64,000 nucleotides of DNA from an uncultured Bacteroidales bacterium (GCA_903828645.1 CAIKNA010000338.1:1468-65467); one strand, 5' to 3'. Positions 27,955 to 62,350 are shown, counted from the first letter of the stretch. The notes: a model not told the origin generated them from the letters alone. Made by a program: numbers and translations.

Positions 27955-30900
27955 ATGAGGGTAAAATTATTCGCTGCAATCTTATTTCTTGTGATTCAGC
28001 TCCCGTTTGCATCCCTGTTTGCACAAACCTCCGTTGTGAAGGGAACTGTTCTTTCCAAGGACGACAACCAGTCTGTACCCGGGGTTAATGTTGTCGTAAA
28101 AGGGTCGTCCCATGGGGTTTCTACCGACATTGAAGGACGATATTCCATCCAGGCTGATAAGAAGGATGTGCTGGTTTTCAGCTTTATTGGTTTCCAGCCT
28201 CAGGAGTTCCTGGTTGGCGAGCAGAAGGAGATCAATGTGGTCCTGATCCCCGTAACGACCAATCTTGACGAGGTAGTGGTTGTTGGATACGGATCAAAAA
28301 AGAAGAGTGATTTGATCGGGGCAGTCTCTTCCGTAAAAAATTCCGAACTGATTGCCATTCCCTCTTCAGATATACAGGGAATGCTCAAAGGGCAAGTTGC
28401 CGGGTTGGCCGTATCTGTTGCAAGTGCAGCTCCCGGGGGAAGTTCAAATGTTCTGCTGCGTGGTACCAACTCACTGAAAGGCGGAACATCACCCCTGTAT
28501 GTTGTTGACGGACTGCCGATCGACAACATCAACGAAATAAACGTGAATGACATTGAAACCGTAAGCGTCCTGAAGGATGCCTCAGCCCAGGCCATATACG
28601 GTGCCAGGGCTTCCAATGGCGTTATCCTGATCACCACCCGGAGGGGCGTTAATTCCAAGGGGAAGATCAATGTTACCTATGATGGCTATGTGACTTTCCA
28701 GAATGTGAGCAAACAGATGAAACTTTTCTCTGCGCAGGATTATATTCAACTAAGACGCGAGGCCTTCAGGGCAGACAATGCCGATTCGGCCAATGGTTGG
28801 AAGGGCACATACCTGCCCGACAGCATTATTTTCAACCCCACGGAACAGCAAAACATTAAAAATGGAAATTTTGTAGACTGGCTCGACCTGGCTTTCAAGA
28901 AAAACGCCTTACTCACCAAGCATGATATCGGCATTTCGGGAGGTAATGAACACACCAGGTATTCCGCTTCCATAGGCATTTTTTACCAGGACGGAATCCG
29001 GTTGAGCTCCGATTATAAACGGTACAACGGGAAACTCGTTCTCGACCAGGATGTTACAAAATGGTTGACGGTGGGTGCATCTGCTTACTATTCGCACTAT
29101 GTGCAGAACCTTGAAACCCAATCGCTGACGGGCTTCATCACTTTTTCACCTATCGCCGACCTTTACAATGCGAATGGCGAGATGAATCTCTATCCATTGG
29201 GTGATTTCAAATCAGTTAATCCTTTATGGTGGGAGAAAACCCAGGATTCAACTTATATCGGCGACCGCGGCATCTATACCGGTTATCTCGAGATACACCC
29301 CTTACCGATCCCGGGCCTGAAGTACCACCTTAATGGCAGTTTTGACAACAGCTACAGGCAGGCAGGTGGATTCCACACCCTGGATGATCCCAACAAGTAC
29401 CTGGGAAAAGGATATATCAATGTTACTTACCGTAAAATCTGGAATTACAACATTGAAAACATACTTACATACGAAGCCAAGGCTTTCAAGACCCACCGTT
29501 ATGATATCACCATGATGCAGAGTGTATTCCGGCGTGATGAAATATCCACCTCTGCCAGTGCCACCAAACTTGCCAATGATTTTTTCGGGCTTAACAGCCT
29601 CGGTTCCGCCCTGGAATCGGGGGTCAACCGGATTGAGCAGCAGCGCAGCATGGTTTCTTTCATGGGTCGTGTCAATTATATCATCAATGACAAATATCTT
29701 TTCAATTTCACCATCCGCGCCGACGGCTCCTCCGTGTTTGGATCGAATAACAAATGGGGATATTTCCCCTCTGGTGCTTTTTCCTGGAATATGCAGAATG
29801 AAAAATTCATGAAGGGGGTCAAATGGATATCAGAGTCAAAACTCAGACTCAGCGCCGGACAGATCGGGAATGAGGGAATCCCTCCTTATGGAAGCCTTTC
29901 ACTGGCAGATCCTGCCTTCTATGTGAGCAACGGGAATCCTGTGATTGGCTACCTGCCTGGAACAAGTCTGCCAAATCCAAACCTTAAGTGGGAAACAACA
30001 ACAACTTTCAACATTGGTTATGATTTCTCCCTGTTTAAAAGCCGCTTATTCGGAAGTTTTGAGGTATATAAGAAAATCACTACGAACCTGCTTGTCAACC
30101 GGCTAATTCCAACCGGCCTGGGCTATTCCAGTATTCCTGATAATCTTGGGGAGATTCAGAATACGGGCTTCGAAGCCGGCCTGAATGGTTTTGTCGTATC
30201 GAACCATGACCTTTCGTGGATGGTCGGTGCCAAATTCGCGATGAATAAAAACAAACTGACCAAAGGTGTTTTAGTTGATCCGGTGACCGGTCAATATGTG
30301 GATGATGTGCTTAACAAATGGTTTATCGGGCAACCTGTCAATGTTTATTATGATTATAAATATCTGGGTATCTGGCAGATCGGTGATGATATTGCCCATT
30401 CCCCGCAGCCGAAAGCCCGCCCGGGAGATGTCAGGGTGGCGGATGTAAGTGGTCCCAAAGGGGTTCCTGATGGTATCATCACCGCGGATGACAGGGTCGT
30501 GATTCACCGTGATCCGGATTTCATCATGTCATTCAATACCACGCTCAAGTATAAAGGACTTGAATTTTCTGCCGATGTATACATAGTAAAAGGGCCGATC
30601 CGCAGCAACCTGTTCATGTCTGATTATAATTCCGGTGGGACCATGCAGGGAAACCTGAACGGGGTATACCGTGATTACTGGCTCCCCGAAACCGGGGGTA
30701 CAACCGCATTCAGGCCTCACTATGACAATGGCCTGGTTACGCAATACATGAGTGCATTGAATTACCAGGATGCTTCCTATGTTCGTCTTACCAATGTGAC
30801 GATTGCCTATAACCTGCCCGACAAATGGGTAAAAGCGATGAAGATGACAAGATTTAAAATATATGTAAGGGGAGACCGGTTGTTCACCTTTACAAAATAC

Positions 30901-30981
30901 CAGTCTTTCGGGCCCGAAACCGATCCCGACGGTTATCCCGAGTCGCGTGATGTGACAGTTGGAGTAAATGTTAATTTTTAA
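27955..30981 (+). CDS. susC: SusC/RagA-family TonB-dependent outer-membrane transporter
   Basis: 1008 aa with a signal peptide. A carboxypeptidase-regulatory-like domain (VKGTVLSKDDNQSVPGVNVVVKG) is followed by a plug (DEVVVVGYGSKKKSDLIGAVS; LKGQVAGL; PLYVVDG) and a C-terminal beta-barrel ending ..VGVNVNF. A SusD gene lies directly downstream. Confidence 0.93.
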   Translation: MRVKLFAAILFLVIQLPFASLFAQTSVVKGTVLSKDDNQSVPGVNVVVKGSSHGVSTDIEGRYSIQADKKDVLVFSFIGFQPQEFLVGEQKEINVVLIPVTTNLDEVVVVGYGSKKKSDLIGAVSSVKNSELIAIPSSDIQGMLKGQVAGLAVSVASAAPGGSSNVLLRGTNSLKGGTSPLYVVDGLPIDNINEINVNDIETVSVLKDASAQAIYGARASNGVILITTRRGVNSKGKINVTYDGYVTFQNVSKQMKLFSAQDYIQLRREAFRADNADSANGWKGTYLPDSIIFNPTEQQNIKNGNFVDWLDLAFKKNALLTKHDIGISGGNEHTRYSASIGIFYQDGIRLSSDYKRYNGKLVLDQDVTKWLTVGASAYYSHYVQNLETQSLTGFITFSPIADLYNANGEMNLYPLGDFKSVNPLWWEKTQDSTYIGDRGIYTGYLEIHPLPIPGLKYHLNGSFDNSYRQAGGFHTLDDPNKYLGKGYINVTYRKIWNYNIENILTYEAKAFKTHRYDITMMQSVFRRDEISTSASATKLANDFFGLNSLGSALESGVNRIEQQRSMVSFMGRVNYIINDKYLFNFTIRADGSSVFGSNNKWGYFPSGAFSWNMQNEKFMKGVKWISESKLRLSAGQIGNEGIPPYGSLSLADPAFYVSNGNPVIGYLPGTSLPNPNLKWETTTTFNIGYDFSLFKSRLFGSFEVYKKITTNLLVNRLIPTGLGYSSIPDNLGEIQNTGFEAGLNGFVVSNHDLSWMVGAKFAMNKNKLTKGVLVDPVTGQYVDDVLNKWFIGQPVNVYYDYKYLGIWQIGDDIAHSPQPKARPGDVRVADVSGPKGVPDGIITADDRVVIHRDPDFIMSFNTTLKYKGLEFSADVYIVKGPIRSNLFMSDYNSGGTMQGNLNGVYRDYWLPETGGTTAFRPHYDNGLVTQYMSALNYQDASYVRLTNVTIAYNLPDKWVKAMKMTRFKIYVRGDRLFTFTKYQSFGPETDPDGYPESRDVTVGVNVNF

Positions 30982-31004
30982 CCCCTGAGCAAAATTCAAC
31001 AACT

Positions 31005-32606
31005 ATGAAATTTAATACAACATTTGCTGCGATGCTCTTCATATTCACTCTTGGATTCACGGGATGTAAGAAATACCTTGAAGAGACCAATCCTTCGCAG
31101 GTTACCACGGATTTCCTCTACTCAACCCCGGAAGGCATTCAGGCTGCAGTGAACGGCCTTTATACCATGGAACGCGCACAGGTTGACGATAATGAGAGCA
31201 ATGACTTTGCGCTCGTCCAGGGCGATTTGGGTACCGATATCGATTTTATGCGGGCCGGCACCTACCCGAGTGTTGCACGGTACAGGCTTGACGGCAACCT
31301 TCCCAACCAGACCGTTATCCAGGGGTGGTGGCGCAAATGGTACCAGATCATCGAAAGGACGAACAGCATCATTACTTTTGGAAAACAGCTCAGCATGTCG
31401 GACAGTGCCAAAAAGCAACTCCTGAGGGAAGCTTATATCTACCGTGCTTATTCGTATTTCTGGCTTGTCCGCAAATTTGATAACATATGGTTAAATCTTG
31501 AGCCGACGACTTCGGCGAATTTTGAAAACCGGGTATACAAAGTAGCATCCCAGGACGAGGTTTACTCAACAATCATTTCCGATCTTGATATTGCCATCGG
31601 CTCTTATGGAAACACCTGGACTACCCGGCCCGGCCAGTTCGGCCTTGGTGCGGCGCTTTACCTCAGGATCGATGTTGCATTGTGGAGGAAGGATTATCAG
31701 CTGGCGGCTGCGCTGGCCGGCCGGTTGATCAATGAGGGCCCTTATGCACTGGTCGACCCGAACCTGATCTTTACAAAGGATGGAAGAAACGACACCAGGG
31801 AAGGGATATACGTTATGCAATTTGATGAATTTGCTGTCGGGGGAGGGAAGTTTCATCGGTTACCCCTTATTTTTACCGCAGATTATAAGTCTGTACCAGG
31901 AACCATGATGGTGTCGGAATATGGCGGGTACGGATGGGCCAGGATTTTCCCAAACGAATACCTGACCAGTTTGTACGACTCTGTTAATGATATACGATGG
32001 AATGCCTGGTTTCAGCATTACTATACCTATAATGATGCAACTTACAACTTCACAGGATTGTCATATAAGCTGGGTGATACGCTGAAGAATGGCCAGAATT
32101 CCACACTCACCGGATCCAACTATTTCAAGGATGCAAGTATCAGTTGCAAGAAATATTGGGATTGGATAAAAGTTCCGAAGGCGACAGTCTCCTACAACAA
32201 TATTTACATGTTCCGGTTCTCGGAGGTTTACCTGATGGCAGCCGAAGCCGAGTGGCGTTTGGGAAATACAGCACCGGCATTAGCCTATCTCAATACATTG
32301 AGACAGAGCAGGATTCTTCCGAATCCAAACCAATTGCTTACATCGGTTGACCAGGAGACCATCCTCGAAGAACACGCGAGGGAACTGGGATTGGAAGGGA
32401 AAAGATGGTTTTTCCTAAAAAGGCTCGGACTGCTTGTGGAACGCGTAAGGGAACACGGCGGAACAACCATGTTCAGGCATGTCATTGCAACTGACCCCAT
32501 CTGGTATTCTCAACGGACAAACATACAGGATTATCACGTGAGATGGCCGATCCCGCAGGCGGAAATTGATGCCATGGGCGGATTCCCGCAGAATACAGGC
32601 TACTGA
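31005..32606 (+). CDS. susD: SusD/RagB-family nutrient-binding outer-membrane lipoprotein
   Basis: 533 aa. The lipobox is LGFTGCKK. TPR-like SusD features are present (WRKWYQIIERTN, YIYRAYSYFWLV, FRFSEVYLMAAEA, ILEEHARELGLEGKRWFFLKR). Confidence 0.92.
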   Translation: MKFNTTFAAMLFIFTLGFTGCKKYLEETNPSQVTTDFLYSTPEGIQAAVNGLYTMERAQVDDNESNDFALVQGDLGTDIDFMRAGTYPSVARYRLDGNLPNQTVIQGWWRKWYQIIERTNSIITFGKQLSMSDSAKKQLLREAYIYRAYSYFWLVRKFDNIWLNLEPTTSANFENRVYKVASQDEVYSTIISDLDIAIGSYGNTWTTRPGQFGLGAALYLRIDVALWRKDYQLAAALAGRLINEGPYALVDPNLIFTKDGRNDTREGIYVMQFDEFAVGGGKFHRLPLIFTADYKSVPGTMMVSEYGGYGWARIFPNEYLTSLYDSVNDIRWNAWFQHYYTYNDATYNFTGLSYKLGDTLKNGQNSTLTGSNYFKDASISCKKYWDWIKVPKATVSYNNIYMFRFSEVYLMAAEAEWRLGNTAPALAYLNTLRQSRILPNPNQLLTSVDQETILEEHARELGLEGKRWFFLKRLGLLVERVREHGGTTMFRHVIATDPIWYSQRTNIQDYHVRWPIPQAEIDAMGGFPQNTGY

Positions 32607-32647
32607 CAGGGTCCTGGCAATTAAAAATCAATATTAACAGTGAATTT

Positions 32648-34990
32648 ATGATAACAGGGAAGAAAATTTTTACAATATTGCTGATGGTCGGGTTGGGCTG
32701 GAATTATGCAGATGGACAGACAACCTTCACCCCCCAGGAAGACAGCTATATTTATGCGGGGGGTACCAAGGCTAACGATCCATACGGGATTATCAACCCG
32801 GATACCCTGAAGACCAGGAAGAGTGTCGCTTCAGAGGAGTTTACCAGGGAAACATACGTGCTGTTCAACATAGGGCATTTTGATACGACTTTTTCTTCTG
32901 TAAAGGTGAAACTTTACGGCACAGTTGCCGAGACAAAGAGGACCCAGATCTTTTCCACAGATACCACCTGGATTGAAGAGACCCTGACCGGGAACAACCG
33001 CCCTTCGGGAATCTATATCAGTGATATAACGTTGACGCCAGGTACCGGGTACTACTCCTGGGATGTGACAAATTATATAAACCAGGCGGTGAGTGAAGGG
33101 CGTCACCGGGTTTCGTTTATCTTCAAGGACATGGCGGGAGCGGTTTCGACCAAGGATACGCCCTGGCATTCCAAGGAAAACCCGTCGGGCAAAGCTCCCC
33201 TCATCGAGTTGACCCCCGGACCGATGCCCTTTCACCGGCATGGCACCTATTTTATCGACCCGGTGATTGGCAATGACAGCAATTCGGCAGCAAGTCCGTT
33301 AGTAGCGTGGAAAACCCTTGACAGGATCAATTCGGAGTATTTTATTGCCGGCGACTCAATCCTGTTCAAATGCGACGGGGTGTGGAACGGCCAGCTGGCT
33401 CCCAAAGGAAGCGGTGCTCCGGGTAACCCCATTGTGATCGGCAGCTACGACAGCGGCAATAAACCCCTGATAAACGGGATGGGATTGTTTACCAATACCG
33501 TACAGTTCAATGGCCAGCATCACCTGGAAATCCAGGATCTGCACGTTACCAATTTAGGGAGTACAGCTGATTTCCGTCGGGCACTCTACTTCCAGGCAGA
33601 GGATATGGGCTCCATTGAACATGTCATGTTAAGGCGTATTGAAATCTCCGACGTGAACGGGCTGATGGATAATACGGATGCGGCAAAGAACTGCGGAGGA
33701 ATTATTTTCGAAATTTCCGGGACTGCCAGGGAAACCTGGTTCGATACACTGGTCATCGAAGATTGTTACATCCACGATGTAGACCGGAGTGGCATCGCGA
33801 ACCTGTCGACCTGGGAAAACCGCACCCTTACAGCAAACACGAACTGGGTTCCAAGCCGCAACATCATCATCCGGGGAAATATTTTCGAAAAGACAGGGGC
33901 CAATGCCCTTATTGTCAGGGTGGCCGATCAGCCTTTGATGGAACATAATTTATTTAATCAATGCGGGTTTAAGGGCACTGGAAATGCCTGTTTCAATTTT
34001 AATACGGATGGTGCCATCTGGCAGTACAATGAAGCCTGCTTCACGAAATATAATGCAGGGGATGAGGATGCCGGTGGCTTTGACAGCGATTTTAAATCGA
34101 TCAACTCCATCATACAATACAATTACAGCCATGACAACGAATGGGGGGCGGTACTGGTAACCGGTGGCCCGACCACTTCAGGAGGGTTCAACGACGGAAC
34201 AGTTGTGAGGTATAATCTGTTTGTCAATAACAAACATCATGAGATCAAAACATCAGGTCATTCAACCAACTCCTTTTTTTATAACAATACAGTGTACAAC
34301 CGACCCACCATGACCGGGATTGTTGTCATCTGGCATAAAAACTGGGATGGGTATTCGATCGATACACATTATTACAACAATCTCTTCCAGGTTCAGGGAT
34401 CCGGCGCCAGCGTAGATGTCGGGGGAAGCTCGGGCAATGTGTTTGATTACAACCTGTTCTGGGGAGCGAACATTGCAAATGAACCGGCCGATGACCACAA
34501 ACTTAAGTTAAATCCTTTGCTGGTTGCACCCGACTCAACAGGATATGGTGCGGATACCATTTGGGGTTACAGGTTGTCGAAAAACTCGCCCGCCATTAAT
34601 TCAGGGATGTCGGTACCGGGTGCACCAACTAGGGATATCGAGAAAAACCCTGTTCCGATGTACCTGGTTCCCGACCGCGGGGCTTTCGAATACAACGGGC
34701 CTTACGGAATTTTATCCCTGGCGGATAATTCCTCCATCCAGATCTTCCCGAATCCTGCCAGAGAACAGGTTAATATCCGGATGAAAAACATTCAGGGATC
34801 CATCTCCGCCATCCGGTTGTTTTCATTAGCCGGAATTCAGCTGTATGAGAAAACACTCACCTCTTATGAGGTCCCCGAAACGCTAACCCTCCCCCTGAAT
34901 CAGCTCAGGCTGGAACCCGGCTGTTACATTCTGAAGATTTATTCTGGTACTGACTGTCAATATGCGTCACTGTTGCTGATCGACAAATAA
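32648..34990 (+). CDS. T9SS cargo: DNRLRE-type N-terminal domain + right-handed parallel beta-helix + type-A C-terminal sorting domain (divergent member of the beta-helix trio)
   Basis: 780 aa with a signal peptide. The N-terminal part reads QEDSYIYAG...RETYVLFNI...WIEETLTGNNRPS...YYSWDVTNYI. The beta-helix entry reads YFIDPVIGNDSNSAASPLVAWKTLDRIN...GDSILFKCDGVWNGQLAPKGSGAPGNPIVIGSY. The CTD reads IQIFPNPAREQVNIRM...GCYILKIY. Confidence 0.75.
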   Translation: MITGKKIFTILLMVGLGWNYADGQTTFTPQEDSYIYAGGTKANDPYGIINPDTLKTRKSVASEEFTRETYVLFNIGHFDTTFSSVKVKLYGTVAETKRTQIFSTDTTWIEETLTGNNRPSGIYISDITLTPGTGYYSWDVTNYINQAVSEGRHRVSFIFKDMAGAVSTKDTPWHSKENPSGKAPLIELTPGPMPFHRHGTYFIDPVIGNDSNSAASPLVAWKTLDRINSEYFIAGDSILFKCDGVWNGQLAPKGSGAPGNPIVIGSYDSGNKPLINGMGLFTNTVQFNGQHHLEIQDLHVTNLGSTADFRRALYFQAEDMGSIEHVMLRRIEISDVNGLMDNTDAAKNCGGIIFEISGTARETWFDTLVIEDCYIHDVDRSGIANLSTWENRTLTANTNWVPSRNIIIRGNIFEKTGANALIVRVADQPLMEHNLFNQCGFKGTGNACFNFNTDGAIWQYNEACFTKYNAGDEDAGGFDSDFKSINSIIQYNYSHDNEWGAVLVTGGPTTSGGFNDGTVVRYNLFVNNKHHEIKTSGHSTNSFFYNNTVYNRPTMTGIVVIWHKNWDGYSIDTHYYNNLFQVQGSGASVDVGGSSGNVFDYNLFWGANIANEPADDHKLKLNPLLVAPDSTGYGADTIWGYRLSKNSPAINSGMSVPGAPTRDIEKNPVPMYLVPDRGAFEYNGPYGILSLADNSSIQIFPNPAREQVNIRMKNIQGSISAIRLFSLAGIQLYEKTLTSYEVPETLTLPLNQLRLEPGCYILKIYSGTDCQYASLLLIDK

Positions 34991-34999
34991 ATAGACGTT

Positions 35000-36406: not shown

Positions 36407-36462
36407 GCCTGATCCGCCGAAAATAGCTAACTTTACATCCTTGCTAATCCCCAGGTTGCCCA

Positions 36463-40563: not shown

Positions 40564-40780
40564 CAGAGAGCCTTTTATCACCATTCCCTATAAACTATAT
40601 TTCAATCAGGGATTTGTTCTTTGAACAATAGAGGAACAGAATTGAACAGCCCTGAAACATCCCCTGACGGATAAAGCAATAATTTTACTGCAATTTAAAC
40701 CCCCGGCAATTGCGGGCGGGTTCAAGTCAAGCTGTTCTATCCAATTAGTAGATCATGAAGTCAAACAAAATTAAAATCCT

Positions 40781-45589: not shown

Positions 45590-45624
45590 TCAGGCAACTT
45601 TTAACCGAAGAACAGGAGCGCAGT

Positions 45625-48491: not shown

Positions 48492-48501
48492 CTCTTGATA
48501 A

Positions 48502-51330: not shown

Positions 51331-51566
51331 AGAGTTATACGTTTTGATTGCCAAAGAAACCCTTATGAATAGGAAAGAAACCAGTTTCACCATTTCAATG
51401 GGCTACCTTTGTTTCTTTAGAATATCAGTAAAGATTATGAAACATAAGAAACTCATTCTCTGGCAATCGCTCCTGATCGTATTGTTGCTGATCATGGTGC
51501 TTTTTATTATTTCAGTGATATAAACGGCGTACATATTTTTAAAATTACTAATCAAATTCAAGGAAT

Positions 51567-53510
51567 ATGAAAAGATCTTTACAATTTAGTTTCGGTATAA
51601 CGCTGTTTTTCATGATGGTAGTTGTCCATCCACTTGCAGCCCAGATACTCATGCTGGACAATTTCGATTATCCGGCAGGTGACTCGTTGACCAAGCACAA
51701 CTGGATCCAGCAGTCGAACACAACGACATTTCCTTTGATGGTGTCGAACGGGGGACTAACCTATTCAGGGTACATCGGGTCAGGCATAGGAAATGCAACA
51801 ACCTTGGGAGTTGAAGGCCAGGACGTTTTCCGTGGTTTTGTAAAGCAGACGCTGCCAGGCACACTTTACCTGACCTGCCTTGCAAAAGTGATCACGGCGA
51901 CAACTGCCGGCGATTTCTTTATCTCATTCAAGGAATCAGCCACCTCCCCGACAAATGTCAACTACCGGGGAAGGGTTTGGGTGAAGGCTGATGCATCAAA
52001 CCATCTTGCATTCGGCGTTACCAAAGGTGCAATGACGTCTCCAATGGTTCCCAATTATACAGGGTTTACCTATAACTTAAATACCACCTATCTTCTGGTT
52101 ATGAAGTTTACCATCGTAGAAGGAACCGTCCCCAACGACAGTGCACAACTGTTTATCGACCCGGTTATCGGAAATCCCGAGCCTGCTGCTTCGGTTATTT
52201 GCCCTGATGTCAACTCTGGGAGCGATTTGGGTCTTGGATCCGTTTTATTAAGACAGGGAACCAACGGGTCATCCCCCAGTGTAATGATAGATGGCATCCG
52301 GGTGTCAAAAAGCTGGCAGTCTGCTATCACGCCAAGCAATGTCTCTACGCTCAGCAATTTGCAGGTCGACGGCACCACGGTAACCGGCTTTCTGCCCAAT
52401 GTGTTTACCTATAATGACACGGTTCCATTCGGTCAGCCTACGGTTGCAGTAACTGGCACCACAACCTGCATCATGGCGAACATGATTGTCAATACGACAA
52501 CGTCAATCCCTGGAATATCGACGGTGGTGGTAACTGCGGAGAATGGAACTTCCACCAGCACCTATACGATCATCCATTCATATTTCTTTTACACGGTCAA
52601 CCTGACAGTAAACCCGGTTGGAACCGGAACGGTGTCGGGGGGCGGGGTGTTGCCATGGGGGATTCCGGCAACGGTTACAGCCACACCAAACACAGGGTAT
52701 GGCTTTATGAACTGGACAGAGTATGGAACAATTGTCAGTACAAACCCAAACTATACTTTTAACCCGGTGAACAATACGGAGTTAGTTGCTAACTTTGGCC
52801 TGCTTTACCAGATAACTGCTACCGCTTCTCCTGCAGCCGGAGGTACCATCACAGGGACCGGTCCGGTGGTTTCGGGCGGAACAGCAACGCTTACCGCAAC
52901 CGCACAAAACGGATATATTTTCGACAACTGGACAGAAAACGGCAGTGTGATCGGTACATCGCCTGCTCTTGTGCTAACGAACGTAACGGCAAACCACGAT
53001 GTAGTGGGACATTTTCTTCAGAGTTCCAACACCTTTACTGTTTCGGCCACGGCGAATCCACCGGCAGCCGGTGTGGTTACCGGATCGGGGAATGTGCCGG
53101 CAGGCGGAAGCATCACGCTCAGTGCTTCCCAGAATTGGGGCTATGTATTCGTGAACTGGACTGAAAACGGCAACGTGCTTGGAACTTCAAATTCGCTGAC
53201 ATTCACCAATGTACAGACAAATCATTCAGTCATTGCCAATTTCCGTCAAGTTGGCGTAGGACTTGAAGATCATTCAATTTCGGGAATCGAGGTATTTCCG
53301 ACCTTTGCAGGGAATGACGTGTATGTAAAAAGCCAAAACCGGATGGATGAGATCCAGGTAATTGACCTCGAAGGCAAACTGGTATGGAAGGAGAGACCCG
53401 GAGGAAACAGCGCCACTATCTCCATCTCGATGTGGAACAGCGGGGTTTACCTGGTGAGGGTCATATCCGGAGACCAGGTGTTTACCAGGAGAATCATCAA
53501 AGGGAAATAG
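51567..53510 (+). CDS. T9SS cargo without recognisable catalytic domain: N-terminal beta-sandwich-like region, cadherin-like module, 3 InlB-B-repeat-like units, type-A CTD
   Basis: 647 aa with a signal peptide. The cadherin-like part reads STLSNLQVDGTTVTGF...VVVTAENGTSTSTYTI. Three roughly 70-aa repeats follow the pattern Y.V...A.P...G.V.G.G......T..A....GY.F.NWTE.G......P...F. The CTD reads IEVFPTFAGNDVYVKS...GVYLVRVISGDQVFTRRIIKGK. Confidence 0.75.
   Translation: MKRSLQFSFGITLFFMMVVVHPLAAQILMLDNFDYPAGDSLTKHNWIQQSNTTTFPLMVSNGGLTYSGYIGSGIGNATTLGVEGQDVFRGFVKQTLPGTLYLTCLAKVITATTAGDFFISFKESATSPTNVNYRGRVWVKADASNHLAFGVTKGAMTSPMVPNYTGFTYNLNTTYLLVMKFTIVEGTVPNDSAQLFIDPVIGNPEPAASVICPDVNSGSDLGLGSVLLRQGTNGSSPSVMIDGIRVSKSWQSAITPSNVSTLSNLQVDGTTVTGFLPNVFTYNDTVPFGQPTVAVTGTTTCIMANMIVNTTTSIPGISTVVVTAENGTSTSTYTIIHSYFFYTVNLTVNPVGTGTVSGGGVLPWGIPATVTATPNTGYGFMNWTEYGTIVSTNPNYTFNPVNNTELVANFGLLYQITATASPAAGGTITGTGPVVSGGTATLTATAQNGYIFDNWTENGSVIGTSPALVLTNVTANHDVVGHFLQSSNTFTVSATANPPAAGVVTGSGNVPAGGSITLSASQNWGYVFVNWTENGNVLGTSNSLTFTNVQTNHSVIANFRQVGVGLEDHSISGIEVFPTFAGNDVYVKSQNRMDEIQVIDLEGKLVWKERPGGNSATISISMWNSGVYLVRVISGDQVFTRRIIKGK
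52590..53243 (+). repeat. Three in-frame tandem InlB-B-repeat-like coding units (~70 aa each)
   Basis: The units are YTVNLTVNPVGTGTVSGGG...NWTEYGTIVSTNPNYTF, YQITATASPAAGGTITGTG...NWTENGSVIGTSPALVL and FTVSATANPPAAGVVTGSG...NWTENGNVLGTSNSLTF. Confidence 0.75.
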
Positions 53511-53533
53511 TAACAACTTAAAAAAAAATTGAT

Positions 53534-55036
53534 ATGAAAAAAAATCTACCAAAAAGTATGTTTATAGTGATCCTGATGATCCTTCTGTCAGGTTCATTAA
53601 GTGCCCAGGTCTATAGTTTCCAGGAAGGTTTTGCAACAAATGCACCTCCTGCCGGCTGGATCACAACCAATGTGGCATGGTCAACCCTGCACAATAACGG
53701 GTTATATACTGGCGCCTATGCAGCCAAACTAAAGCCCAACGAGTCCTTCCTGATATGCAAGGCCGTCAATACCGCCGACATGCTTCAGTATTATTGCCAG
53801 GTGCGGGATACCACGGCAGCAACCAATTTTCACCTGATGATCGAGAAATCGACCGATAAGCTGACGTGGACAGAAATAAGTAAAGATCCGTTCAATAAAG
53901 CAGACACGAACTGGCAGGTGATGAATTTATCTGTAAAGGATAATTCCCCGGTACTTTACATCCGGTTTCATGCAACCGCGCTGGGCGGAACTGCGACTCT
54001 CGGACTCTGTTACATCGACGATGTGAGCATTACCAAACTGGCGGTATCCCCAACAGATGCCACCCTGACCGATTTTACTTACAACAGTACAACCGTGGAT
54101 GGATTTGCCGCGACTACGCTTAACTACGCGGTTGAAGTGCCATACTTTGTTTCACAGGTGGCCATGGGAGGAACACCCAATAATCCGGCGGCCACCATGA
54201 CCATCACTAACCCGACCTACTTACGCGGGACTGAAGCTGAGCGTACCGGCAAAATTGTTGTGCATGCCTCTGATGGGGTGACCACCAAGACCTATTCGAT
54301 CGTATTTACAGTTTCAAAATACATTTACAAGACCGGATTTGTAACGACCGGATCAGCCATTGTCCCATTTGAAGGCTGGACCACCAGTTATACCCTGGTC
54401 TCCACGACCATTCCGATGGGAGATCATGGTACATTTCCAGGAACTGCTGCTTTCAAGTTTATCCGCGGTCAAACCGATAAAGTCGGATACCTTAATACTG
54501 CAAAATATGTAAAATCAGACACGCTTGATTTCTGGCTTGCTGTTGACCAGGGTGACGGCGTGGAGCATATGCTGATCGAAAAACGTGTTCTCGGCGGAAT
54601 AAAGGTGACGGTAGGCAACATCAATGCCACCGATATGGGTCCCGACTGGAAAGAATTCAAATACCCAATCAAGACAGACGACAGCACCGAGATCATCTTC
54701 ACTCCAACCATAACTCCTGAAAGCCTGGTGACCAGGATTTTCATGGATGATCTGAGTCTTACCGGAAAACCGGTTATCGGGGGCATCACAAAAGTTACAG
54801 GAAAGGCAAACATGTCTTTCTACCCGAACCCAGCCACCGATTATATCACGGTGAGCATAAATGATCCTGCTTTCCATTCTGTTGATCTTTATGACATTAC
54901 TGGAAAAAGGGTCTTTTCAGCCGAAGTCAGTGGAGAGGGAATCAACATCGACCTGCGAGTTTACCCGAGGGGGATTTATTTCGTAACCTGCAGGAATAAT
55001 GAATGCGTTACCACAGGGAAATTTATTAAAAATTAA
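53534..55036 (+). CDS. T9SS cargo without recognisable catalytic domain: two MAM/CBM-like beta-sandwich modules flanking a cadherin-like module, type-A CTD
   Basis: 500 aa with a signal peptide. FQEGFATNAPPAGW...LMIEKSTDKLTWTEIS...CYIDDVSIT is homologous to FKEGFVTFPPVNW...LYIEKSTNGGSTWTTLS...FYIDDVSLT in 40781-45589. The cadherin-like part starts TDATLTDFTYNSTTVDGF. The CTD reads MSFYPNPATDYITVSI...GIYFVTCRN. Confidence 0.75.
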   Translation: MKKNLPKSMFIVILMILLSGSLSAQVYSFQEGFATNAPPAGWITTNVAWSTLHNNGLYTGAYAAKLKPNESFLICKAVNTADMLQYYCQVRDTTAATNFHLMIEKSTDKLTWTEISKDPFNKADTNWQVMNLSVKDNSPVLYIRFHATALGGTATLGLCYIDDVSITKLAVSPTDATLTDFTYNSTTVDGFAATTLNYAVEVPYFVSQVAMGGTPNNPAATMTITNPTYLRGTEAERTGKIVVHASDGVTTKTYSIVFTVSKYIYKTGFVTTGSAIVPFEGWTTSYTLVSTTIPMGDHGTFPGTAAFKFIRGQTDKVGYLNTAKYVKSDTLDFWLAVDQGDGVEHMLIEKRVLGGIKVTVGNINATDMGPDWKEFKYPIKTDDSTEIIFTPTITPESLVTRIFMDDLSLTGKPVIGGITKVTGKANMSFYPNPATDYITVSINDPAFHSVDLYDITGKRVFSAEVSGEGINIDLRVYPRGIYFVTCRNNECVTTGKFIKN

Positions 55037-55060
55037 ACAGGCATCCGAAAAACCACATTC

Positions 55061-55132
55061 GCACAAAAGACGCTAAGACGCTAAGAATTATGTAATTGAA
55101 CTGATATTCCTGGCATCTTGGCGTTTTTGCGC
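55061..55132 (+). terminator. Long imperfect hairpin between the T9SS-cargo block and the GH2 gene
   Basis: The left arm GCACAAAAGACGCTAAGACGCTAAG (contains a GACGCTAA direct duplication) pairs imperfectly with the right arm GGCATCTTGGCGTTTTTGCGC. The loop is about 26 nt. No clean T run follows, so a terminator role is uncertain. Confidence 0.35.
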
Positions 55133-55159
55133 TTTAAACTTTACCCCTGATTCCTGATT

Positions 55160-57022
55160 ATGAATAAATGTATAACAACCAGGCTCTGCGGATTCATTAT
55201 AATCCTCTCAGTTTTTCTGTGCTATCCCGTAATCAGAAGTCAGGGGCAGACCCCCTTGATACAGAATATCAATAACCGGGCGGTTCTCTCCCTCAACGGA
55301 AAATGGAACTACATCATTGATCCCTATGAAATGGGTTACTATGACTATCGTGCCATACCTTTTGATGAGAATCCCAAACCTCAGGACAGGGCTTTTTATA
55401 CCAATGCAAAACCGAAGGATAAATCTGAGCGGATCGAATACGATTTTGACAAATCACCCACTCTTTTGGTTCCCAGGGACTGGAATTCACAGGATGAGAA
55501 ACTGTTGTATTATGAAGGGACCATCTGGTATAAAAAATCATTCAATTATCATAAAGACGCGGCAGGAAACAGGGTTTTTCTCCATTTTGGCGCCGTGAAC
55601 TACCGTGCCGATGTTTATCTGAATGGGAAAAAACTCGGCTACCACAAAGGCGGGTTCACTCCCTTTAATTTCGAGATCACCGACCTGGTTGCAGAGAAAG
55701 ATAATTTCGTCATTTTAAGGGTCTGTAACACCCGGAAAGCCGAGGAGGTTCCCACACTCAATACCGACTGGTGGAATTATGGTGGAATTACCCGGGATGT
55801 CAACGTTGCAGAGACCCCTGCTGTATTTATCTGCGACTATTTTCTGCAATTGAAAAAAGGTTCGGGAGATGTACTTAAAGGGTACGTGAAGCTTAACGGA
55901 CAAGGCATTTCAGGAAAAGAGGTCAGGTTGACCATCCCGGAGATGAAGTTTGAAAAAACCGTCATAACCGACGATGCAGGATTTGCGGCCATTGAAGTCG
56001 CCGTCCCGGGGTTACACCGCTGGTCGCCTGAGGATCCTTACCTTTATGATGTGAAGATCAGCACATCGATGGATGCAGTTACCGACAGGATCGGTTTCAG
56101 GATGGTCGAAACAAGCGGGATGGATATCCTGCTTAACGGTAAACCTGTTTTTCTCCGGGGGATCAGCATTCATGAAGAAAACGCCATCCGGGGAGGAAGG
56201 GCATATTCCAGGGAGGATGCCATTATGCTGCTTACCTGGGCAAGGGAACTGGGGTGTAATTTTGTGCGGCTTGCACACTATCCCCATAATGAAAACCTGG
56301 CAAGGGTTGCCGATGAGATGGGAATCATGGTTTGGGAGGAAAACCCCGTTTACTGGACCATCCAGTGGACAAACCAGGAGACCTTCAATACTGCGGCAAC
56401 TCAGTTGAAAGAGATGATTTCCAGGGACAAAAACCGGGCTTCGGTCATCGTATGGTCGATGGCCAACGAGACCCCGGTCACACCTGAGAGACTGACATTT
56501 CTGAAAAATCTCGCCGATACGGCCAGGAGCATCGACAACGTTCGCCTTATCAGTGCCGCATTGGAACAACATGGTACGCCCGGGAATGAACTGGTCAGGA
56601 CCATTGAGGACCCTTTCGCTCAGTATGTCGACCTCGTGAGTTTTAACGAATACATCGGATGGTACGACGGACTGCCTGACAAGTGCAGGAAAATAGAATG
56701 GAATATCCTTTTTAAAAAACCGGTGTTTATTTCCGAATTCGGTGCGGATGCGCTTGGTGGGATGCACGGCGACAGCCTGACCCGATGGTCGGAGGAGTAC
56801 CAGCAATATATGTACAGGGAGACACTGGGGATGATTGGAAAAATTCCGCAGTTGCGTGGATGTTCTCCATGGATTCTGGTGGACTTCAGGTCGCCGAGGA
56901 GGGTTTTACCCGGGATCCAGGATGGCTGGAACCGCAAGGGACTCATCTCGGAAACGGGAAACAAGAAAAAAGCATTTTACACGTTGAAAGAATTTTACGA
57001 AACAATCAGCAAAAAGTACTGA
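55160..57022 (+). CDS. GH2-family glycosidase, probably beta-glucuronidase
   Basis: 620 aa with a signal peptide. Motifs are VYLNGKKLGYHKGGFTPFNFEITD, WSMANE (acid/base Glu) and FISEFGADA (nucleophile Glu). The C-terminal GWNRKGL carries the N-x-K motif that contacts the glucuronate carboxylate in GUS enzymes (E. coli GGNKKGI). Confidence 0.8.
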   Translation: MNKCITTRLCGFIIILSVFLCYPVIRSQGQTPLIQNINNRAVLSLNGKWNYIIDPYEMGYYDYRAIPFDENPKPQDRAFYTNAKPKDKSERIEYDFDKSPTLLVPRDWNSQDEKLLYYEGTIWYKKSFNYHKDAAGNRVFLHFGAVNYRADVYLNGKKLGYHKGGFTPFNFEITDLVAEKDNFVILRVCNTRKAEEVPTLNTDWWNYGGITRDVNVAETPAVFICDYFLQLKKGSGDVLKGYVKLNGQGISGKEVRLTIPEMKFEKTVITDDAGFAAIEVAVPGLHRWSPEDPYLYDVKISTSMDAVTDRIGFRMVETSGMDILLNGKPVFLRGISIHEENAIRGGRAYSREDAIMLLTWARELGCNFVRLAHYPHNENLARVADEMGIMVWEENPVYWTIQWTNQETFNTAATQLKEMISRDKNRASVIVWSMANETPVTPERLTFLKNLADTARSIDNVRLISAALEQHGTPGNELVRTIEDPFAQYVDLVSFNEYIGWYDGLPDKCRKIEWNILFKKPVFISEFGADALGGMHGDSLTRWSEEYQQYMYRETLGMIGKIPQLRGCSPWILVDFRSPRRVLPGIQDGWNRKGLISETGNKKKAFYTLKEFYETISKKY

Positions 57023-57873
57023 TGGGACTGTTTAATGCATCATGGGGCAAAGTATTGTCCATTTGCACGCTCCTGACGGCCATTACCGGGTGTGTCTCCA
57101 TGCATGACCAACCTGTCAGGAACATGAGCGGCACTTCAACGTATTCAGTTTCAGGACTGGATATCTACCTGCTGATTGGCCAGTCAAACATGGCCGGGCG
57201 CGCACAGATCCTCGTTCCCGATTTCGATACCCTCTTTGGAACTTTTCTTTTTACCGGCGATAGTGTTCACCCCTGGGAACCGGCTGTGAATCCGCTCAAT
57301 AAATATTCAACGATCAGAAGAGAACTCTCTGTTCAGCAGTTGAGCCCGGGTTATTATTTTGCCAAAACGATGATGGCAAAGGAACCCGCAAAACGTTTAG
57401 GGTTGGTGGTCAACGCACGCGGCGGAACCTCCATCGACCTGTGGGCGCCAGGCACCACATATTTCAAGGATGCTGTCAGTCGCACAAGGCAGGCTTTGCA
57501 CAGCGGGCACCTCAGAGCCATTCTTTGGCACCAGGGTGAATCGGATGTGAAAAAATACCGGGAATACCCTGATAAGATTGTTACCCTGATTGGAGCCCTT
57601 CGCAAAGAGCTGAACAGCCCTGGTCTGCCTTTTATTGCAGGAGAAGTAGCCGAAGAAAAACCGAACCGGGCCGGGTTCAACGTGATGCTGAAAGAAACCT
57701 TGTCGAAGATACCATATACTTCCGTGGTTAGTGTGACCGGATTGACCACATACGATTCCACCCACTTTGACACACGGTCAATGAGGATTCTCGGGGAACG
57801 ATATGCCCTTGAGACAAAGAAAGTACTGGACGGTCAGAAAATGAAAGTAAAACCTACAAAAAAATCAAAATAA
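57022..57873 (+). CDS. SASA-type (sialate O-acetylesterase-like / DUF303, SGNH-like) carbohydrate esterase lipoprotein
   Basis: I use the ATG at 57022 (MGLFNASWGKVLSICTLLTAITGCVS, lipobox), which overlaps the GH2 stop as TGATG. Motifs are LLIGQSNMAGRA and ILWHQGESD. Confidence 0.75.
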   Translation: MGLFNASWGKVLSICTLLTAITGCVSMHDQPVRNMSGTSTYSVSGLDIYLLIGQSNMAGRAQILVPDFDTLFGTFLFTGDSVHPWEPAVNPLNKYSTIRRELSVQQLSPGYYFAKTMMAKEPAKRLGLVVNARGGTSIDLWAPGTTYFKDAVSRTRQALHSGHLRAILWHQGESDVKKYREYPDKIVTLIGALRKELNSPGLPFIAGEVAEEKPNRAGFNVMLKETLSKIPYTSVVSVTGLTTYDSTHFDTRSMRILGERYALETKKVLDGQKMKVKPTKKSK

Positions 57874-57882
57874 CTTTGAAAA

Positions 57883-58734
57883 ATGGATGAAATAACCTTC
57901 AAAGATTTAAACAATACCCTCACGGTGATTACCGGAGGCGCCGGGGTGATCGGAAAAGCGATCGCGCTGGGACTGGCCTCAATCGGGGGCAGGACGGTAA
58001 TACTCGATATTGATCTGGACGCTGCACAGTTCGTTGCAGCCGAAATCACGGAACGTACCGGGAGTTTTTGCATGGGAGTAAAGGCTGATGTGCTGAACAA
58101 ACAGTCATTGCTTGCCGCCAGGGAGACCATACACCGGGAGGCCGGGAAGATTAGCTTCCTGATCAATGGGGCAGGAGGGAACGCGCCGAAGGGAACCACC
58201 CGGCTGGAAGAGATAGTACCTGAGCAGATCCATGACCTGGCAGGAACTTTTTTCGGACTGGAGGTGGAGGGAATGGAGCGCATTTTTGACTTGAATTATT
58301 TCGGAACCATTCTGCCAACGATGGTCTTTGCTGCCGATATGATCGAGGCAGGCAAAGGGGCAATTCTGAATATTTCTTCCCTGAGCGCCTTTCACCCCCT
58401 GACGAAAATACCGGTTTATTCTTCAGCCAAGGCAGCCATTAATAATTTCACGGAATGGCTGGCAGTTCATATGGCTAAAACGGGTGTGCGCGTCAATGCC
58501 ATCGCACCGGGATTCTTCCTGACAAAACAGAACAGGTTCCTCCTGATAGATGAACAATCCGGCAACCTTTTACCCCGTGGCCAGAAAATCATGACCGGTA
58601 CGCCGATGGGACGGTTTGGAACACCCGAGGAACTTGCAGGCCCGGTTGCCTTTCTTCTTTCCGACATGGCGCGCTACATTACCGGCACGGTTATGCTGAT
58701 CGATGGTGGATATAATGCATACAGCGGAGTATGA
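57883..58734 (+). CDS. uxuB: SDR-family D-mannonate oxidoreductase (fructuronate reductase, Bacteroides UxuB type)
   Basis: TGGAGVIGKA; NGAGGNAPKGTT...FFGLEVEGMERIFDLNYFGTILPT; ILNISSLSAF.PLTKIPVYSSAKAAINNFTEWLAVHMA; RVNAIAPGFFLTKQNRFLL; TPMGRFGTPEEL; IDGGYNAYSGV. This is the characteristic pattern of the SDR-type UxuB of Bacteroidota. Confidence 0.7.
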   Translation: MDEITFKDLNNTLTVITGGAGVIGKAIALGLASIGGRTVILDIDLDAAQFVAAEITERTGSFCMGVKADVLNKQSLLAARETIHREAGKISFLINGAGGNAPKGTTRLEEIVPEQIHDLAGTFFGLEVEGMERIFDLNYFGTILPTMVFAADMIEAGKGAILNISSLSAFHPLTKIPVYSSAKAAINNFTEWLAVHMAKTGVRVNAIAPGFFLTKQNRFLLIDEQSGNLLPRGQKIMTGTPMGRFGTPEELAGPVAFLLSDMARYITGTVMLIDGGYNAYSGV

Positions 58735-58753
58735 TCGTGGAAATAATAACAAA

Positions 58754-59833
58754 ATGAGTATGCAACTGAAGAGACAATTTTCCTGGTCATTGCTGGTTCC
58801 AACCAGCATGGGGGTGAGGCTAACCCCGAAAAATGGTCAGCCGGTTCATAGCAGTGATACATTTAAAATGCAGGCAACGAGCGCTGAAACCAATGTTGCC
58901 AGCATCCCTGCATCCTTAGGGCTTCCTGTAAAGGTACTCACCACCTTTGTAAAAGGGAGTCCGGTTGCCCGGTTTATAAAAAACAGCCTGGCAAGCCGGC
59001 ACATGGTTTATGAAGGAAGGGAAGTGGAACAGGGTGGTCCATGGGGATACCGCCACCAGTTCAACATCGCCGACAGCGGTTTTGGCACCCGGGGTCCGCG
59101 CGTGCTCAACGACCGCGCAGGCGAAGTGGGCCGAATCCTGCGTATGAACGATTTTGACCTGGTCCGGATCTTTGAAAAAGAGGGTGTTCAGATCGTGCAC
59201 CTGTCGGGCCTGATCGCTGCCTTATCCCCGGAAACAGGACAATTTTGCCTTGAACTGGCCCGGGCAGCAAAGCGAACCGGATCCCTGATTTCGTTTGACC
59301 TGAATTACCGGGCCTCATTCTGGAAGGACCGTGAAAAAGAGTTGCATGATATCTTCATCGAGATCACTTCAATCTCCAATATCCTTGTTGGGAATGAAGA
59401 GGATTTTCAGCTTTGCCTGGGAATTGAAGGCCCTGAGGCAGGCGGAAAAAGCATCGACGCAGAACTGGAAAGTTTTAAGAAAATGATTATCCGCGCCAGG
59501 CAGGCTTTCCCCGGCGTTTCGGTATTTGCTACCACACTTCGTCAGGTGGTCAGCGCTAACCAGCATTTATGGGGTGCAATCATGCTTGAAGGCGACATCT
59601 GGCATATTGTTGAGCCTCGTGAAATTGCTATCCTTGATCGCATCGGCGGGGGTGATGGATTTGTCGGCGGATTGCTTTACGGGATATTGAAGGAGTGGGA
59701 ACCTGAAAAATGGATACGGTTTGGCTGGGCCAGCGGTGCCCTGGCCACTACATTTTTAACCGACTATGCCCAGCCCGCAGATGAGGAGATGATCTGGAGT
59801 ATCTGGAAAGGGAATGCGAGGGTCAGTCGATAA
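58754..59833 (+). CDS. kdgK: PfkB-family sugar kinase, likely 2-dehydro-3-deoxygluconokinase
   Basis: I use the ATG at 58754, which lies after the uxuB stop. The start reads LLVPTSMGVRLTP. Other features are HLSGLIAALSPETGQFCLELARAAK, FDLNYRASFW and the C-terminal anion-hole motif DRIGGGDGFVGGLLYG. Context is next to uxuB. Confidence 0.7.
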   Translation: MSMQLKRQFSWSLLVPTSMGVRLTPKNGQPVHSSDTFKMQATSAETNVASIPASLGLPVKVLTTFVKGSPVARFIKNSLASRHMVYEGREVEQGGPWGYRHQFNIADSGFGTRGPRVLNDRAGEVGRILRMNDFDLVRIFEKEGVQIVHLSGLIAALSPETGQFCLELARAAKRTGSLISFDLNYRASFWKDREKELHDIFIEITSISNILVGNEEDFQLCLGIEGPEAGGKSIDAELESFKKMIIRARQAFPGVSVFATTLRQVVSANQHLWGAIMLEGDIWHIVEPREIAILDRIGGGDGFVGGLLYGILKEWEPEKWIRFGWASGALATTFLTDYAQPADEEMIWSIWKGNARVSR

Positions 59834-59854
59834 CAGGAAACAGGAAAAATAATT

Positions 59855-61123: not shown

Positions 61124-61138
61124 TAAAATTCCAGGGAA

Positions 61139-62266: not shown

Positions 62267-62350
62267 AAACAAGTACAAAAGGGGCAAATCGGACTGAATC
62301 TTTTTTGGTCTTAAGGTGACTAAATTTTGAATTTTAAAATAAAATTAAGA

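Follow-up and report, generated by a model that had tools for sequence, protein, structure and literature searches.

A polysaccharide utilization locus with three GH136-family beta-helix proteins, an LnbY-like partner and esterases in an uncultured freshwater Bacteroidales bacterium

We analysed a stretch of 64,000 nucleotides (nt), hereafter the window (GCA_903828645.1 CAIKNA010000338.1:1468-65467), which is part of a 75-kb metagenomic contig from an uncultured freshwater Bacteroidales bacterium. Our subject is a polysaccharide utilization locus (PUL) at 27955-63805, whose predicted glycan-degrading machinery includes three beta-helix proteins of glycoside hydrolase (GH) family GH136 and several proteins with C-terminal sorting domains (CTDs) of the type IX secretion system (T9SS). 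Eighteen long open reading frames (ORFs) were found in this interval, every one on the + strand, with junctions of -32 to +236 nt. ORFs of the - strand reach at most 264 amino acids (aa), and each is nested in a + strand ORF. The genes of the locus are as follows.

27955-30981, + strand: SusC-type TonB-dependent transporter, 1008 aa, with Plug and CarbopepD_reg_2 domains (TIGR04056, 799 bits; cut-off 368)
31005-32606, + strand: SusD-family lipoprotein, 533 aa (PF07980, E=9e-29; PF14322; N-terminus ...FTGC)
32648-34990, + strand: CBM96/DNRLRE module, divergent GH136-like beta-helix and T9SS CTD, 780 aa (predicted acid/base D474, nucleophile D481)
35000-36406, + strand: GH50-family lipoprotein of the BpGH50 subfamily, 468 aa (PDB 5T3B, E=5e-65; signal ends LIVSC)
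36463-40563, + strand: hybrid two-component system regulator (HTCS), 1366 aa, with seven Reg_prop repeats and Y_Y_Y, HisKA, HATPase_c, Response_reg and HTH_18/AraC domains
40781-45589, + strand: multimodular T9SS cargo, 1602 aa, with choice-of-anchor V, Big_5, cadherin-like, MAM-like and fn3 modules, a BD-FAE-type alpha/beta esterase and a CTD
45625-47538, + strand: GH136-family beta-helix glycosidase core and T9SS CTD, 637 aa (predicted acid/base D326, nucleophile D333)
47508-48491, + strand: LnbY/GH136I-like protein, a predicted dedicated chaperone or subunit, 327 aa (317 aa with the start chosen by the gene caller; NF047894, E=3e-21)
48502-51330, + strand: CBM96, GH136-family core and two fn3 domains, no CTD, 942 aa (predicted acid/base D565, nucleophile D572)
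51567-53510, + strand: T9SS cargo, 647 aa, with an N-terminal concanavalin/LamG-like jelly roll (no Pfam family), one cadherin-like module, three InlB-B repeats and a CTD
53534-55036, + strand: T9SS cargo, 500 aa, with MAM-like and cadherin-like modules (Pfam)
55160-57022, + strand: GH2 beta-hexuronidase of glucuronidase/galacturonidase type, 620 aa, with signal peptide (PDB 7VQM, E=1e-219)
57022-57873, + strand: SASA-type carbohydrate esterase lipoprotein, 283 aa (PF03629, E=4e-51; longest ORF 56785-57873, start Met80)
57883-58734, + strand: UxuB-type D-mannonate oxidoreductase of the short-chain dehydrogenase/reductase (SDR) superfamily (NF006132, 347 bits; cut-off 281)
58703-59833, + strand: PfkB-family sugar-acid kinase, 2-keto-3-deoxygluconate (KDG)-kinase-like (PF00294; all NCBIfam matches below cut-off)
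59855-61123, + strand: LarA-family nickel-pincer "putative hexonate epimerase" (NF052594, 646 bits; cut-off 500)
61139-63805, + strand: PdxB-like 2-hydroxyacid dehydrogenase (NF001309, 416 bits, below the cut-off of 434) and Gnd, 6-phosphogluconate dehydrogenase (TIGR00873, 765 bits)

The locus contains an adjacent susC/susD pair, genes for carbohydrate-active enzymes and a regulator, the features by which a Sus-like PUL is recognised. An initial annotation, made from the DNA alone, had described a co-directional block with SusC, SusD and a hybrid two-component/AraC regulator; the block is as described, and Pfam and TIGR models match all three core components. The same annotation had counted five proteins with T9SS type-A sorting domains. 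Por_Secre_tail/TIGR04183 models place the CTD above cut-off in the 780-, 1602-, 647- and 500-aa proteins; that of the 637-aa protein scores 19 bits, below cut-off. The count of five is acceptable, however, because the 637-aa protein shares, at residues 540-627, 47% identity (E=1e-21) with the genuine CTD of the 1602-aa cargo protein. The pattern of presence and absence of CTDs is kept among orthologues. These predictions support a genuine PUL with SusCD and HTCS, the extracellular machinery of which is largely T9SS cargo. Scans for promoters and terminators between 27000 and 64000 gave counts not above those of shuffled controls, and no + strand terminator lay in a gap between genes; the sigma-70 consensus used is, moreover, unsuited to Bacteroidota. 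Scans for tRNAs and Rfam families found nothing within the locus.

All three beta-helix proteins are homologous to GH136 enzymes, by comparison with PDB, NCBIfam or both. The match spans about 480 residues, at 25-33% identity to the characterised members. The 637-aa protein is the closest (7V6M, E=4e-38; 7V6I, E=3e-26; LnbX 5GQC, E=1e-24; ErLnb136 6KQS, E=2e-18) and also matches the NCBIfam LnbX model NF047897 (E=5e-29). The core of the 942-aa protein is 80% identical to that of its 637-aa paralogue, and this protein matches the same model (E=4e-23) in addition to CBM96 (E=7e-41) and fn3. The 780-aa protein is more divergent (7V6M, E=1e-26; 6KQS, E=9e-11; 34% identity to the 637-aa paralogue across 530 aa), and carries CBM96 (E=1e-25) and Por_Secre_tail. 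The acid/base and nucleophile of ErLnb136 are D568 and D575 (PMC7335108). They correspond to the first and last Asp of "QDSMAWDAD" in the alignment with 6KQS, and a pair of aspartates 7 residues apart is kept in all three proteins, within the motifs DAGGFDSD (780 aa) and DGSLYDAD (637 and 942 aa). Neither aspartate varies in an alignment across phyla (A1), and the motif is present in 85 of the 95 GH136-like genes found in 79 related loci (77 from a scan of GTDB representative genomes and two fetched earlier). Characterised GH136 enzymes are described as retaining, and the same mechanism is presumed here.

The initial annotation had called these three proteins unclassifiable and had put them forward as a candidate undescribed family of lyases or hydrolases, which would act on polyuronates by beta-elimination if they were lyases. 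Several observations would suit such a role: the beta-helix is a common fold of polysaccharide lyases (PLs), and the founding member of CBM96 binds alginate (PMC9971899). GH88-like and DUF2264 genes, which usually accompany lyases downstream, occur in four to five related loci. However, no GH88 or GH105 is encoded within the window, and Pfam and NCBIfam scans of the three proteins returned no pectate-, alginate- or chondroitin-lyase or other PL family, only one weak generic Beta_helix match. Since the proteins align along their full length with GH136 hydrolases of solved structure (best E=4e-38), keep an invariant pair of catalytic aspartates and have a GH136-specific chaperone partner encoded alongside, we reject a lyase nature for the trio and consider an undescribed lyase or new hydrolase family very improbable. 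The three proteins are GH136 homologues and the proposal of an undescribed family falls.

The chaperone partner just mentioned, a gene that the initial annotation had passed over, lies between the two close GH136 paralogues (637 and 942 aa). Its 327-aa product scores 76 bits against NF047894 ("lacto-N-biosidase chaperone LnbY") and does not reach the equivalog cut-off of 400. By this score the protein is classed as a distant member of the LnbY family, not an LnbY orthologue. It has no match in PDB by sequence and is placed only via NCBIfam and a fold search. An AlphaFold2 (AF2) model (mean predicted local distance difference test, pLDDT, 85.6) gave SurA/PrsA/PEB4/CBF2 chaperones as top Foldseek matches, with probability 1.0. 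Among these is CBF2 of H. pylori (5EZ1), and the reported structural neighbour of the GH136I domain is likewise H. pylori CBF2 (PMC7335108). Some homologues carry Pfam Rotamase_2 or SurA_N domains. The partner gene is adjacent to the GH136 genes, as in known GH136I/LnbY pairs, and dependence of the enzymes on it is predicted.

The same association recurs widely in the 79 related loci, the genes of which were labelled using hidden Markov models built from the window domains; single-linkage clustering merged all proteins sharing CTD, fn3 or CBM96 modules into one cluster. An LnbY-like gene adjoins or is fused to GH136-like genes in 44 of the 79. Also recurrent are BD-FAE esterase (38/79), SusC (24/79), SASA esterase (22/79), SusD (21/79), the jelly-roll domain of the 647-aa protein (20/79), GH50-like proteins (18/79) and GH2 (17/79). 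The loci are from Bacteroidales, Paludibacter, Sphingobacteriaceae, Chitinophaga, Belliella, Ignavibacteria and KSB1, and also from Planctomycetes/Phycisphaerae, Verrucomicrobiota, Acidobacteriota and Clostridia. The sources are metagenome-assembled genomes (MAGs) and isolates from lake, sediment and soil, and at least eight phyla are represented. The gene order of the window locus is shared by several lake Bacteroidales MAGs, and the 780-aa subtype adjoins SusD in two other loci (L007 and L011). At E<=1e-30 the clade comprises 1,415 clusters at 50% identity. The 150 best matches listed all have E<1e-89, far closer than any characterised GH136.

Do these proteins act on lacto-N-biose (LNB)? 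In the literature searched, every characterisation of a GH136 enzyme is of a lacto-N-biosidase, and the catalytic residues are kept here, so that the locus could be read as a lacto-N-biose or mucin-type system for host glycans with true lacto-N-biosidases. We regard this as highly unlikely. Lakes, sediments and soils are the sources of the relatives, esterase genes are closely associated with the GH136 genes, and no Pfam or NCBIfam match in the window indicates the expected partners GH112, GH20, GH29, GH95 or GH33. Stacking on Gal in ErLnb136 involves Trp548, a residue of the "WPW" motif (PMC7335108). By sequence alignment only, this position falls within an FSA triplet in the 637- and 942-aa proteins, where Ala takes the place of Trp; the 780-aa protein has Phe there. 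Given the habitats, the lack of LNB-pathway partners nearby and the replacement of this Trp in two paralogues, the specificity is probably not for lacto-N-biose. Placement of the trio in a characterised GH or PL family, which the initial annotation had named as grounds for refuting its claim, holds formally for membership; it does not extend to substrate, given the 25-33% identity and a context unfit for lacto-N-biose.

Esterases are frequent companions of these genes. In the window, an esterase domain of BD-FAE type lies at about residues 1053-1280 of the 1602-aa protein, with HGGG at 1073 and GGSAG at about 1163, in agreement with the esterase first proposed there. The SASA esterase was likewise correctly recognised. 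Its apparent 238-nt overlap with the GH2 gene is an artefact of choosing the longest ORF. The ATG at 57022 shares 1 nt with the GH2 stop, and starting at Met80 gives a lipoprotein-type signal (LLTAITGC); because of this lipobox and the same layout in the orthologue in locus L002, Met80 is most likely the start. Among related loci, 46 of 79 encode at least one esterase, and several encode fusions. Proteins of about 515 aa that join a BD-FAE esterase to an LnbY-like domain are encoded directly upstream of a GH136-like gene in Sphingobacterium and Parapedobacter (L035 8307-9851, L042 8337-9884, L049 8339-9898), which suggests that the chaperone may be a stable subunit tethering an esterase to the glycosidase. 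GH136 cores are fused to SASA domains in Pseudopedobacter, Belliella and Fermentimonas, and LnbY-like domains are fused to GH136 cores in a Pedobacter MAG and an Acidobacteriota MAG, which is the arrangement of ErLnb136. The phmmer coordinates of these two kinds of fusion are L030 9416-13702, L040 9320-13906, L070 544-3384 and 5286-7601, L043 9323-11458 and L048 9401-11965. An O-acylated substrate is strongly backed by this comparative genomics, and O-acylation appears to be common to the substrates of the clade, since esterases (46/79, plus fusions) outnumber uronate genes (19/79).

The evidence for a hexuronate is more local. The GH2 protein has the Pfam N-terminal, middle and C-terminal domains of GH2 and N-R-K at residues 591-593, consistent with the glucuronidase N-x-K motif that had been noted and with assignment as a hexuronidase. 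Its best PDB match is 7VQM, "GH2 beta-galacturonate AqGalA" (E=1e-219), followed by the B. uniformis-type beta-glucuronidase 6D1N (E=2e-207). Against the NCBIfam equivalog for the E. coli-type enzyme (NF007538) it scores 270 bits (E=4e-80), below the cut-off of 544. The UxuB and LarA-like assignments of the initial annotation also hold, both with scores above cut-off. Of its KdgK assignment, the PfkB-family kinase stands and is KDG-kinase-like, and the more specific function is not reached by any NCBIfam match. A UxuB-type SDR of the same cluster (c15) is also found beside GH136 genes in L006, L034, L047 and L060. Based on the GH2 match, UxuB, the KdgK-like kinase and uronate genes in some related loci, a hexuronate component of the substrate of this locus is plausible. 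Across the survey, uronate-linked genes (GH2 with WNxKG, GH88-like, DUF2264, CE15, UxaC, UxuA and UxuB) were counted; ExuT-like genes of the major facilitator superfamily (MFS) are also present in related loci. In some planctomycete and Chitinophaga loci, sulfatases take the place of uronate genes. The substrate first suggested, an acetylated glycan containing glucuronate, thus keeps its O-acyl groups, while the uronate is plausible for this locus and is indicated in only 19 of the 79.

UxuB, the PfkB kinase, the LarA-like epimerase, the PdxB-like protein and Gnd are encoded in a row at 57883-63805. This row could provide a route for glucuronate from mannonate via gluconate to 6-phosphogluconate. 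The PdxB-like and Gnd genes are uncertain members of the locus; a PdxB-like gene (cluster c34) also neighbours the GH136 genes of L047 and L067.

The 468-aa lipoprotein had been described as clan-GH-A-like and impossible to place. It has no Pfam or NCBIfam match, but it belongs to GH50 (5T3B, E=5e-65). It also matches the GH50 agarase Aga50D (4BQ2, E=3e-24), and its DNE (E237) and TEF (E365) motifs align with the catalytic Glu residues at chain positions 491 and 652 of that enzyme, which we take to be E534 and E695 of the published numbering. Homology of the catalytic domain and both catalytic Glu are thus present. We assign the protein to the family. Characterised GH50 enzymes are beta-agarases, and this raises the question of whether the locus targets galactans of agar or porphyran type. 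The closest solved homologue, BpGH50, has no agarase activity on agarose or neoagarotetraose (PMC8260779), GH16, GH86 and GH117 are absent from the locus and the lineage is a freshwater one. An agarase role for the GH50 protein is rejected on these grounds, and an agar- or porphyran-type target is exceedingly improbable. BpGH50 (BACPLE_01683) belongs to a subfamily with members in gut Bacteroides and resembles the 468-aa protein over about 390 residues, in length class, in both catalytic Glu and in being encoded in a PUL. The gene for BpGH50, however, is in a porphyran PUL of B. plebeius, where it adjoins a GH105|GH154 gene (PMC12316285), whereas the partners of the 468-aa protein are GH136 proteins and esterases.

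Two T9SS cargo proteins, of 647 and 500 aa, look non-catalytic by their domain content. The modules of the 500-aa protein are repeated in the 1602-aa protein (BLASTP to residues 718-949, E=2e-29). The jelly-roll domain of the 647-aa protein (51645-52320, residues 27-250) has no sequence-level match to any solved protein. Foldseek searches with an AF2 model matched lectins/CBM40 and calreticulin and also lyases of PL36 and PL20, with template modeling (TM) scores of 0.34-0.59. Residues Y175, K180, E205, R229-Q230 and D242-G243-R245 are invariant across 30 homologues. In Ignavibacteria the domain is fused to a BD-FAE esterase, and homologues carry varied anchors (T9SS CTD, IPTL-CTERM, dockerin, FG-GAP and cupredoxin). 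We considered whether the domain is a catalytic lyase of the PL7/PL20/PL36 fold class, given matches of probability 1.0 to PL36 Aly36B (6KCV) and the PL20 glucuronan lyase (2ZZJ), the invariant Tyr, Lys, Arg-Gln and Asp, and its recurrence in GH136 loci. Lectins/CBM40 and calreticulin rank equally at the top, however, and frequent fusion to esterases and diverse anchors is typical of carbohydrate-binding modules. A catalytic role is therefore quite unlikely and the modelled fold is probably that of a binding module. Both large proteins had been said to consist only of binding-type modules. This stands for the 500-aa protein, and probably for the 647-aa protein, with the minority possibility of a lyase just described.

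Taken together, we consider it fairly probable that this locus is a PUL in which three GH136 two-aspartate beta-helix hydrolases and an LnbY-like partner serve the use of an O-acylated, hexuronate-bearing glycan. The sequences show the family memberships, catalytic residues, domain architectures, synteny and fusions; from these we infer the compartments, the order of action, an O-acetylated hexuronate-bearing substrate and a specificity other than lacto-N-biosidase. The presence of CBM96 also speaks for this reading, as its founding member binds alginate and the module is attached to PL8 enzymes as well (PMC13260240). The LnbY-like partner, of SurA/PrsA fold, would assist folding of the GH136 enzymes in the periplasm and might remain with them as a subunit. 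The 780- and 637-aa GH136 enzymes, the 1602-aa modular esterase and the two lectin-like binding proteins would be exported by the T9SS. Outside the cell, esterases would remove O-acyl groups and the GH136 enzymes would cut the glycan, possibly to di- or oligosaccharides. These fragments would be imported by SusCD. In the periplasm, the CTD-less 942-aa GH136 protein, the GH50-like lipoprotein, the SASA lipoprotein and the GH2 beta-hexuronidase could complete degradation. UxuB and the KDG-kinase-like enzyme, perhaps with the LarA-like hexonate epimerase, would pass hexuronate to central metabolism. The HTCS would sense an oligosaccharide intermediate. The 637- and 942-aa proteins differ in that one has a T9SS CTD and the other has CBM96 and two fn3 domains without a CTD. 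This difference is kept in orthologues, and those of the 942-aa protein likewise lack PF18962. The two appear to bring a single catalytic activity to two places, the cell exterior and the periplasm.

Several points weigh against this interpretation. The hexuronate component may be specific to a lineage, because uronate-linked genes are found in only 19 of the 79 related loci and GH2 with WNxKG only in the closest 5. The 64-kb window lacks genes for UxaC, UxuA and Eda as well as for the T9SS machinery. No characterised enzyme falls within the clade of 1,415 clusters. The compartments are predicted from signal and CTD motifs alone. Co-transcription is presumed, and the promoter and terminator scans gave no information on it.

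A related proposal is that the substrate is an acetylated exopolysaccharide (EPS) or capsule of bacteria or microalgae, resembling xanthan, glucuronan or colanic acid, with the GH136-like proteins acting as endo-depolymerases in the manner of phage tailspikes. The coupling to esterases, the hexuronidase and UxuB, the EPS-rich habitats of hosts from many phyla and the sulfatases in planctomycete versions are consistent with it, as are homologues on phage contigs and a report of viral GH136 from Lake Cadagno sediment (PMC13502194). The proposal rests on genomic context, and known enzymes for xanthan and gellan (GH5 xanthanase, PL8 and GH38) are absent from the window. Which GH families accompany GH136 depends on the clade, and this points to several different substrates. 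We consider the EPS proposal somewhat unlikely.

For the environmental GH136 clade as a whole, we suggest that its members are not lacto-N-biosidases but have a new specificity, for O-acylated, often uronate-bearing glycans of microbial, algal or plant origin. The SurA-like partner would be a stable subunit that links an esterase physically to the glycosidase, in line with the BD-FAE-LnbY and GH136-SASA fusions, and in Bacteroidota the chaperone-dependent enzyme would then pass to the T9SS. All of this is put forward tentatively, with confidence that falls a little short of even.

The nearest characterised relatives are LnbX/LnbY of Bifidobacterium longum and ErLnb136/RhLnb136 of Eubacterium and Roseburia (5GQC, 6KQS, 7V6I and 7V6M). 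These share with the window proteins a right-handed beta-helix alignable over about 480 residues, aspartates spaced 7 residues apart and a neighbouring GH136I/LnbY partner resembling SurA and peptidyl-prolyl isomerases, which is fused in some relatives. The window locus differs in being a Gram-negative PUL with T9SS CTDs, CBM96 and three paralogues. Its clade is linked and fused to SASA and BD-FAE esterases and occurs in environmental rather than gut hosts. Moreover, the Gal-stacking Trp is not kept in two of the three paralogues, and no phosphorylase pathway for lacto-N-biose/galacto-N-biose (LNB/GNB) is nearby. The locus resembles canonical Bacteroidota PULs with HTCS in its SusC/SusD pair, regulator, periplasmic exo-glycosidases and co-directional genes, but most of the enzymes and binding proteins at its cell surface are type-A cargo of the T9SS and not SusE/F/G-like lipoproteins. 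Environmental Bacteroidota have been described with such an arrangement before (PMC10792170, for example). In Winogradskyella forsetii, also a member of the Bacteroidota, a PUL centred on GH136 enzymes, for which no substrate is proposed, was called "enigmatic" (PMC9723794). The comparison is one of gene content: the marine PUL includes sulfatases, and the window locus none, encoding esterases and a hexuronidase instead.

In the literature searched, which covered GH50, xanthan, EPS and glucuronidase contexts, GH136 is linked to no substrate other than LNB. The environmental GH136 clade, its pairing and fusion with esterases and its association with the orphan BpGH50 subfamily are not described there. 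The key enzymes belong to known families (GH136, GH50 and GH2), the first two in uncharacterised branches, and no new type of system or fold family is involved. GH136, characterised in that literature only as a family of gut lacto-N-biosidases, thus has a much larger environmental branch, which keeps the catalytic machinery and a dedicated chaperone and is tied to acetyl- or feruloyl-type esterases, to GH50 and, in some lineages, to hexuronate catabolism. The locus offers a concrete set of enzymes with which to approach the substrate of "enigmatic" GH136 PULs and an initial route to function for the BpGH50 subfamily. Cultured carriers include Pseudopedobacter beijingensis CGMCC 1.12329, Sphingobacterium arenae KCTC 32294, Parapedobacter soli KCTC 12984, Belliella marina CGMCC 1.15180 and Chitinophaga alhagiae T22.

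Searches of phage and plasmid sequences (tblastn) returned only distant homologues, with 27-40% identity and none with an annotated substrate. GH136-like homologues are encoded on a human-faecal phage contig (MT837212.1 1500-3194, 33% identity) and in an Enterococcus phage (OR846592.1 32111-34054, 28%), with 82% coverage. A Gram-positive version (L080) is on a megaplasmid of Paenibacillus cellulositrophicus (NZ_CP045296.1 91452-95469), where the GH136-like gene is annotated "Ig-like domain-containing protein" (40% identity). It is preceded by a gene for a 250-aa hypothetical protein; genes for a Gfo/Idh/MocA oxidoreductase, a beta-galactosidase, an ABC sugar transporter and a two-component system are nearby.

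The choice-of-anchor V domain at the N-terminus of the 1602-aa protein (NF041895, E=2e-22) contains CHNCH, a CxxCH haem-c-type motif, at 40922-40936 (residues 48-52). Upstream of the PUL, 3295-8987 encodes a YhcG/DUF1016 PDDEXK nuclease and the type I restriction-modification proteins HsdS and HsdR (a helicase-nuclease), which are unrelated to the PUL. Two large proteins (9487-13563 on the + strand and 14352-17114 on the - strand) carry the Fibrobacter succinogenes major paralogous domain at their C-termini. CBM96 and PKD modules are present in the - strand one as well, so that CBM96 is not confined to the PUL among the surface proteins of this organism. Also encoded, at 21098-26070 on the - strand, are a small GH16-like protein, an M1 aminopeptidase and an Lcl_C-domain protein. 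A tRNA-Leu(CAG) gene at 23961-24045 is the only RNA gene that the tRNA and Rfam scans found in the window.

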